From contig JBKEDH010000167.1 in assembly GCA_047975295.1 (NCBI GenBank), positions 1 to 14,384 of the forward strand: 14,384 nucleotides of DNA, in the 5' to 3' direction. Position numbers and translations under genes: made by a program. Origin of the DNA: Aestuariibaculum sp. (GTDB lineage Bacteria; Bacteroidota; Bacteroidia; Flavobacteriales; Flavobacteriaceae). Numbering within the stretch: position 1 is the stretch's first letter; each line of letters begins with the position of its first letter. The notes beneath the pieces were generated by a model that had not been told where the DNA came from, did not search any database, and was given only the letters and a program-made list of their open reading frames with translations. Shown piece after piece: positions 5,799 through 5,870 of this stretch.

Positions 5799-5870
5799 CT
5801 GGAAAAATAACAATGGCTGTTTGCTCGCTTTGGAAGCGGGAGGTTGCAGGTTCGAATCCTGCTTTCCAGA
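5799..5870 (+). ncRNA. Linear tRNA-like cloverleaf (tRNA-Pro(UGG)-like; non-canonical core, could be a divergent tRNA or a mimic)
   Basis: Acceptor CTGGAAA (5799-5805) / TTTCCAG (5863-5869) pairs 7/7. D-arm is TAAC-AATGGCT-GTTT (3 bp plus a T/T mismatch, GG present). Anticodon arm is CTCGC-TTTGGAA-GCGGG (5824-5840; U33, UGG, A37). Variable region is AGGTT and T-arm is GCAGG-TTCGAAT-CCTGC (5846-5862). A 5870 sits at position 73 and no CCA is encoded. A at position 8 and the weak D-stem are atypical. Confidence 0.6.

Follow-up and report, generated by a model that had tools for sequence, protein, structure and literature searches.

A tRNA-like gene adjoining genes for Band-7 and RtcB proteins was predicted in 2016 under the name 'b7a-tRNA' and, according to the text that cites it, the prediction was without experimental validation as of 2018 (10.1101/312249). 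A second related system is that of the supernumerary long tRNA arrays (L-arrays), of which the trn operon of Anabaena is an example (Santamaria-Gomez et al. 2021, PMC8421152). Their tRNAs are accessory, are patchily distributed and duplicate existing anticodons. They are silent until stress and are co-regulated with rtcB through shared promoter repeats, L-arrays have been reported in Bacteroidetes among other phyla, and a sponge role has been proposed for their tRNAs (PMC8421152). A repair module of RtcB, PrfH and TPR genes has also been described (PMC6514570), and phage tRNAs are reported to evade anticodon nucleases by means of changes in the loop (PMC10264068).

The window, i.e. the whole stretch of DNA that was analysed, is a contig of 14,384 bp from the MAG of an Aestuariibaculum sp. 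(Flavobacteriaceae), and it has exactly the neighbourhood that the citing text gives for the b7a-tRNA: a tRNA, a slipin gene and an RtcB gene. The tRNA-type element (5799-5870) sits in a 914-bp gap between a WYL/WCX-domain transcription regulator and the slipin gene. The regulator (4588-5598; Pfam WYL and WCX, PADLOC WYL models) is divergently oriented on the minus strand. The slipin (SPFH/Band-7) gene (6513-7613; Pfam Band_7, 6.2e-26) encodes a protein with 100% identity to the NCBI entry 'slipin family protein' from an Aestuariibaculum sp. MAG, and is followed by an RtcB-family RNA ligase gene (7763-9136; Pfam RtcB, 6.4e-38). RtcB is conserved 3' of slipin at about 20 related loci. The tRNA, slipin and RtcB genes all lie on one strand, here the plus strand. 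No Rsr/Ro60 (TROVE) gene was found in the window with Pfam. The possibility that the tRNA marks an integration site (attB) was rejected, as the window has no integrase and the tRNA is inside the cassette.

Our best reading of these comparisons is that the element belongs to an already known kind, the 'Band-7-associated tRNA', and that it resembles the supernumerary L-array tRNAs. The name 'b7a-tRNA', which we know through the citing description, may refer to the linear tRNA, to permuted tRNA-like modules found downstream of it (6018-6166), or to both. Multi-isotype arrays, a WYL operator and the A37 trait, all found here, do not appear in the citing text. Unlike the L-arrays, the window has a single tRNA gene and no array, with orthologues that lie inside arrays of up to 18 genes; the putative regulator is a WYL protein acting on an inverted-repeat operator; and the tRNA genes are physically fused to a cassette of slipin and a tRNA-like RNA. 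The patchy distribution is common to both systems, and the co-regulation with rtcB has its counterpart here in an operator motif that the tRNA unit shares with RtcB in relatives. The twist that is specific to the tRNA family described below is a phage-type A37 together with a putatively operator-controlled placement.

The element reads CTGGAAA-AA-TAAC-AATGGCT-GTTT-G-CTCGC-TTTGGAA-GCGGG-AGGTT-GCAGG-TTCGAAT-CCTGC-TTTCCAG-A. As the original prediction had described it, this is a 72-nt cloverleaf with a perfect 7-bp acceptor (CTGGAAA/TTTCCAG, 5799-5805/5863-5869) and a perfect T arm (GCAGG-TTCGAAT-CCTGC, 5846-5862). The anticodon arm (5824-5840) has a stem, CTCGC/GCGGG, that includes one U·G pair and a loop, UUUGGAA, that places UGG (5831-5833) at positions 34-36. 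The C1-G72 pair, A73 (5870), G35 and G36 can be read off directly and are the same in the E. coli tRNAPro gene proM; they are ProRS determinants of bacterial tRNAPro. The departures listed in the prediction were also found in the sequence: A8 instead of U8, a U10·U25 mismatch and a 7-nt D loop (AATGGCT). The D arm spans 5808-5822, and its stem (TAAC/GTTT) has 3 bp beside the mismatch. The T loop UUCGAAU, G18G19, U33 and a purine at position 37 are all kept. Two features had escaped the prediction. Position 37 (5834) is an A, while canonical tRNAPro carries G37, the site of m1G37 modification by TrmD, and CCA is not encoded, the 3' tail being A73-C-A-A rather than A-C-C-A. E. coli proM has the cloverleaf, UGG, C1-G72, A73, G18G19 and the T loop UUCGAAU in common with the element, and differs from it by U8, G10-C25, a 4-bp GC D stem, a 9-nt D loop, G37 and an encoded CCA. 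The related loci include no housekeeping Flavobacteriaceae tRNAPro, and G37 as the host state is presumed from canonical tRNAPro and from proM. The missing CCA is uninformative, since CCA is not encoded either in the tRNA-Met of L040, the sole tRNA of the related loci that looks like a housekeeping gene.

The Rfam tRNA model (RF00005) matches the element end to end (model positions 1-71 of 71) with 51.9 bits, where the gathering score is 29 bits (E = 6.7e-9 for the window). This is a moderate score next to the 65.8 bits of proM on the same scale; two phage tRNAPro genes score 44.7 and 40.6 bits (Vibrio phage Pylo, annotated, and an IMG/VR phage contig). ARAGORN, which the original prediction had proposed as a check, called 0 tRNA genes in the whole window at default stringency and a tRNA-Pro(tgg) at 5800-5871 at the 95% threshold. 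The single-sequence minimum-free-energy fold is a cloverleaf (z-score -2.2) with the acceptor and T arms as expected; it departs from the canonical fold in a D stem that is one position off and an anticodon stem lengthened to 7 bp. A chance cloverleaf was rejected on the RF00005 match and on the covariation of the family. Judged from its sequence, the element is a real, selectively maintained and unusual proline tRNA gene, a call that draws on RF00005, ARAGORN at the 95% threshold, a family covariance model (R1) and covariation.

For comparison we used 80 Flavobacteriaceae loci found by a slipin protein profile. Uninterrupted orthologues of the tRNAPro are present at 24 other Flavobacteriaceae loci and on one phage contig, and the family consensus is CTGGGAA-GA-TAAC-GGTGGTT-GTTT-A-CCCGC-CTTGGAC-GCGGG-AGGTC-GCAGG-TTCGAAT-CCTGC-TTCTCAG-A-C. 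In alignment A2 (25 members) UGG, U33, A37, C1-G72, U2-A71, A73, C74 (5871 in the window), G18 and the T-loop core are invariant, A37 being found in the window and in 25/25 members. At position 8 the members have G, A or U, and their D stem is always (U/G)AAC/GUUU; 19 of the 22 distinct sequences have U10·U25. A8, U10·U25, the 3-bp D stem and A37 are traits of the family and not signs of decay.

The family alignment also supports the fold. Pairing of the cloverleaf is kept in 95.2% of cells, and 10/21 stem pairs change on both sides. None of 500 shuffles reached the observed pairing and covariation, and sliding the partners against each other collapses the pairing. An independent RNAalifold run recovered the acceptor, anticodon and T arms. 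As the D stem never varies in the family, covariation gives no evidence for or against the D arm. With R1, the covariance model built from the family, the members reach 88-102 bits, and the window reaches 91.9 bits. Outside the family, it gives 62.7 bits for E. coli proM, 65-68 bits for T5-like phage tRNAPro and at most 54 bits for non-Pro tRNAs. The family is present at about 30/80 related loci and absent from the slot at about 50/80. Among its carriers are the complete genomes of Olleya sp. R77988 (CP138988.1) and Aquimarina sp. LLG6339-5 (CP159328.1), and cultured ones include Tamlana sedimentorum, Olleya and Winogradskyella endarachnes.

In relatives the tRNAPro orthologues can lie within tRNA arrays. 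Upstream of slipin, on the same strand, the 80 loci carry from 0 to 18 tightly packed tRNA genes of varying isotypes, as identified with ARAGORN and Rfam. Their order recurs and is, for example, Ser-Ser-Cys-Tyr-Trp-Asp-Pro-Glu-Lys-Leu-Leu-Arg-Gln-His-Phe-Arg in L030. In a count that includes the window and three non-slipin loci, at least one array tRNA was found in 60/82 sequences and at least ten in 25/82. Sister tRNAs in the arrays of L013, L016, L017, L021 and others also deviate at position 37: Leu(UAG) carries A there, Asp and Glu carry U, and Phe and roughly half of the Leu(UAA) genes carry G. A pyrimidine at this position is very unusual. Array tRNAs that read ANN codons keep A37, and His keeps G-1 and C73. 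The array 'Leu' genes, at 74-75 nt, have class I length and lack a long variable arm. Odd anticodons recur in the same arrays, for example a 71-nt 'Tyr(ata)' between His and Phe, an Ile(tat) and one Stop(tta). The U37 of Asp and Glu and the class I length of 'Leu' leave room for a non-translational role.

In the phage collection, the tRNAPro is matched best by the tRNAPro genes of T5-like Vibrio phages, with 85-88% identity over positions 25-72. The tRNAPro(UGG) of the T5-like Vibrio phages Pylo and JSF10 has the anticodon arm CUCGC-UUUGGAU-GCGAG and also carries A37. Its anticodon arm, variable loop and T arm are near-identical to those of the window, while the phage genes differ by their GC-rich acceptors and encoded CCA. 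The IMG/VR contig UViG_3300035698_000727 includes portal, terminase and other virion genes together with a Pro-Gln-His-Leu-Leu array. Its Pro gene scores 89.4 bits with R1 though it is outside the training set; it shares the TAAC/GTTT D arm and A37 with the window and differs from it by an A1-U72 pair. The window gene is chromosomal and lies in a repair cassette, whereas the phage tRNAPro genes sit in phages. A BLAST search of E. coli genomes returned only a T-arm similarity to tRNA-Arg and was uninformative. No meaningful matches were found among PLSDB plasmids with the whole array and the family Pro as queries, so that no link to plasmid-borne arrays such as that of Anabaena is demonstrated. 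When L030:740-2060 is compared with T4-like Serratia and Erwinia phages, the adjacent Glu-Lys pair of the array has 75-80% identity to a stretch of their tRNA clusters that is annotated as tRNA-Glu and tRNA-Lys; the match starts inside the adjoining Pro gene, in its 3' part, and tRNA-Asp is listed under longer matches. This similarity hints that the bacterial arrays and the phage tRNA clusters share ancestry.

Between the regulator and the tRNA lies a conserved block (about 5640-5715) that holds an inverted-repeat operator, ACGCAAAAACATTGCG (5662-5677). The invariant parts of this block are CGCAAAA..TTGCG and ATATTTG..GTAAT. In the window the operator motif has a single exact match, at a distance of 65 nt from the start codon of the WYL gene and with the tRNA 136 nt downstream of it. 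The operator can be written as ACGCAAAA-N3-TTGCG, and across loci the motif is CGCAAWW-N3-5-TTGCG. It lies 134-142 nt upstream of the first tRNA, either Pro or Tyr, in the window and in L001, L002, L005, L008, L012 and L029. Relatives have it in two further places, 75-140 nt upstream of RtcB and some 45 nt from the start codon of the WYL gene. Where the arrays are large, the operator is placed between the array and a conserved RNA of about 320 nt, which indicates that not all family members, and not the whole array, are under operator control there. We infer that the WYL protein binds the motif.

The operator block is followed by a leader with a 10-bp hairpin, GCTCCACCAG-(10 nt)-CTGGTGGAGC (5743-5772, plus strand), located between the block and the tRNA. 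Alignment A4 shows compensatory changes of this hairpin in relatives (GCTCCGCCAG/CTGGCGGAGC, GCTCTGCCAG/CTGGCAGAGC and GCTCTGCTAG/CTAGCAGAGC), and in L020 the hairpin also precedes RtcB. No T-run follows the hairpin at 5743-5772. Scans for sigma-70 promoters and terminators did no better than on shuffled sequence, Bacteroidota promoters being outside their coverage. Most simply, the arrangement suggests that the tRNA is the first gene of an operator-controlled unit, the genes of which would be co-transcribed.

Taken as a whole, the explanation that we favour, with a little better than even confidence, is that the gene encodes a divergent tRNAPro(UGG) that serves as an inducible accessory or spare tRNA, belonging to a phage-related family, in a slipin/RtcB RNA-repair cassette of marine flavobacteria. 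Our confidence is higher for a selected, cassette-linked accessory tRNA and lower for a spare decoder. The best reading sets aside both an ordinary housekeeping tRNA and a dead relic, and under it the genome presumably has a separate canonical tRNAPro(UGG). For a tRNA that decodes, it is unusual to have A8, a 3-bp D stem with U10·U25 and an ARAGORN score below threshold. Of the original prediction of a divergent functional tRNA-Pro(UGG), the divergence holds, and conservation, the R1 score and operator spacing add that the gene is selectively maintained and linked to the cassette; its function as a tRNA is putative.

Under the favoured explanation, the transcription unit would begin at the operator beside the divergent WYL gene, with the tRNA as its first gene, and would run on into the 320-nt RNA and probably into slipin and RtcB. 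Induction would come about when the WYL protein senses RNA damage or translation stress. The precursor, which includes the tRNA-like RNA, would be cut by RNase P and RNase Z, CCA would be added, and ProRS would charge the tRNA via G35, G36, G72 and A73. The tRNA could then act as a spare decoder of CCN codons while the housekeeping tRNAs are damaged and RtcB is repairing them. With A37 rather than G37, it would have no need of m1G37 and might be cut poorly by nucleases that recognise the anticodon loop of the host tRNA. To our knowledge, the substrates that RtcB repairs in bacteria are still largely open, and this locus offers a compact, testable system with one regulator, an operator, a tRNA, a tRNA-like RNA, slipin and RtcB.

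A stronger version of this idea, which we put forward only tentatively and think possible rather than probable, is that the gene belongs to a 'hardened', phage-type set of replacement tRNAs, switched on by the WYL-controlled cassette when the cell's own tRNAs are cut. The invariant A37 of the family would then have been selected, as would the position-37 changes of the sister tRNAs for Leu(UAG), Asp, Glu and Phe, to free the spare tRNA from the need for m1G37 and to let it escape the nuclease that disables the housekeeping tRNAPro. If so, this would be a host-encoded use of a trick so far described only for phage tRNAs. The 80-locus set provides a family-specific tRNA model, evidence of selection and the link to phage tRNAs. 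It is this link that yields the concrete hypothesis of nuclease-resistant spare tRNAs, which, if true, would tie tRNA-targeting warfare to RNA repair in bacteria and to accessory tRNA arrays.

The tRNA is followed after 15 nt by the structured RNA of about 320 nt (5886-6202, plus strand), which is conserved at 78/80 related loci; of the 79 pairs that RNAalifold predicts for it, 44 show compensatory changes. It comprises a highly conserved 5' domain (5890-6010), two circularly permuted tRNA-like modules, and a conserved terminal hairpin with a T-run (6173-6195). Module 1 consists of a closing stem (6018-6022/6083-6087), a T arm (6028-6044), an acceptor-like hairpin (6045-6062) and a D arm (6065-6081). 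Module 2 consists of a T arm (6097-6113), an acceptor-like hairpin (6114-6129), a D arm (6132-6148) and an anticodon-like arm (6150-6166) that forms a complete stem-loop, CTGTA-ACTGGGT-TACAG. The RNA as a whole has no Rfam family. The Rfam YrlA model (RF02553) matches 6005-6107 with 47.1 bits, below its gathering score of 69, module 1 being the only module to give such a match, and a partial Rfam tRNA match lies at 6061-6115. The theme shared with YrlA, a bacterial Y RNA, is that of a tRNA-shaped RNA encoded beside RtcB. YrlA itself is permuted, its acceptor being closed and its anticodon stem open, and it binds Rsr/Ro60, whereas the element at 5799-5870 is a linear tRNA that does not match the YrlA model, the YrlA-like match being found downstream instead. 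The real 'b7a-tRNA' may be this 320-nt RNA itself or a part of it. No matches to its 5' motif were found in IMG/VR, and the cassette is thus not seen on viral contigs. The proposal that the element is a dedicated mimic belonging to the adjacent cassette is borne out with regard to cassette membership; as for mimicry, it is not needed to explain the element, and the true mimics are the permuted modules at 6018-6166.

The close spacing of the two RNAs raises a rather unlikely alternative, namely that the tRNA is a non-decoding structural element of the cassette. It could be a processing handle, where cuts by RNase P and RNase Z at the tRNA free the 5' end of the 320-nt RNA, or a decoy that serves as bait for anticodon nucleases, the products of which feed RtcB or signal to the WYL regulator. 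In L002, L006, L012 and L029, which carry tRNATyr(gta), and in L020, which carries a Tyr-type gene with the anticodon ata, the tRNA ends 1 nt before the start of the 320-nt RNA; measured from the end of the ARAGORN-called tRNAPro to the conserved start of that RNA, the gap is 21 nt in the window and 10 nt in L001. That either Pro or Tyr can fill the slot suggests that position matters more than isotype. Family members without U8, the weak D stem, the tRNA mimicry of the other RNAs of the cassette and the sponge role proposed for L-array tRNAs (PMC8421152) point the same way. A handle, however, would not need UGG and the ProRS-type C1-G72 and A73, which are invariant in 25 sequences while the stems drift. 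Nor is a handle required for the downstream RNA, which at several loci, for example L003 and L009-L011, has no ARAGORN-detected tRNA upstream of it and at other loci is hundreds to thousands of nt from the nearest one. For a decoy, A37 is odd, as it makes the gene an imperfect copy of the canonical host tRNAPro.

Compared with the favoured accessory tRNA, a decaying relic, i.e. the last recognisable gene of a lost tRNA array with no present function, would explain why the window's nearest relatives have only Pro and/or Tyr or no tRNA at all (0-2 genes, against up to 18 in other genera). The rejection by the default ARAGORN run, A8, G26 and the U28·G42 wobble are in line with decay, and other copies of the family are visibly damaged, with the T arm replaced in L063 and L024 and insertions in L035, L050, L067 and L014. 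The window gene itself behaves differently. It retains every family-invariant position, its R1 score falls within the family range and its spacing to the operator is conserved. It differs from each relative at 11-17 of 74 positions without a single broken stem pair: 3-7 stem pairs differ from those of any given relative, 1-4 of them changed on both sides, and all are still paired. A conserved core with changes that preserve pairing indicates purifying selection on the RNA, unlike in a decaying pseudogene. We therefore consider a relic improbable, and the pseudo-tRNA that had been offered as one possibility is disfavoured, as its non-canonical core is conserved family-wide and its stem differences are compensated.

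Least probable of all is an ordinary housekeeping tRNAPro(UGG) that adjoins the cassette by happenstance, as the RF00005 score well above threshold, the correct Pro identity elements and a missing CCA that counts for nothing are outweighed by a family that occurs at only about 30/80 loci (which argues against a sole tRNAPro(UGG)) and is embedded in variable, redundant arrays, by A37 where proM and canonical tRNAPro, with its m1G37, have G37, by the absence of U8, by phage tRNAs as the nearest database relatives and by a fixed distance to an operator shared with RtcB.

Several further features of the related loci were recorded. Rfam Flavo-1 RNA motifs flank the slipin gene at many of them, on the minus strand in L001 (5130-5201) and L002 (5132-5208), and on the plus strand in L013 (3624-3701), L021 (3702-3832) and L080 (3837-3907); Flavo-1 was also found in L005, L008, L011, L012, L013, L020 and L029. 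In the window, the spacer between slipin and RtcB (7614-7762) is GC-rich and structured-looking, but is below the Flavo-1 threshold.

Relatives also carry a fuller cassette, with the order (distant RtcB)-PrfH-like release factor-TPR-[tRNA array]-[320-nt RNA]-slipin-(RtcB), as in L025:2-1230, L002:1833-2985, L057:283-3087 and at least 40 other loci. PrfH-like and TPR genes lie upstream of the array at many loci, and the distant RtcB lies further upstream at some. This part of the cassette matches the RtcB-PrfH-TPR repair module described previously (PMC6514570), so that the fuller cassette joins an RtcB-PrfH ribosome-repair module to the Band-7/tRNA module. PrfH and TPR are missing from the window, which we read as a loss.

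A conserved insertion of about 53 nt was observed at one T-loop position (after GGTTCGAA) at 17 sites in 14 loci, among them L067:1440-1565, L014:2125-2249, L028:~2137-2250, L035 (four sites) and L053:~2960-3075. Its hosts are array tRNAs of many isotypes (Pro, His, Cys, Leu, Ser, Gln and others), and the surrounding tRNA bodies look intact. The insertion begins with ATGC-N3-GCATTCAYGA at its 5' end and finishes with YGARCTAAT at its 3' end, and could be intron-like or a site-specific mini mobile element. In L007 and L010, Tyr-like genes carry a related insertion in their anticodon loop. The insertion adjoins a ligase family of the tRNA-splicing type.
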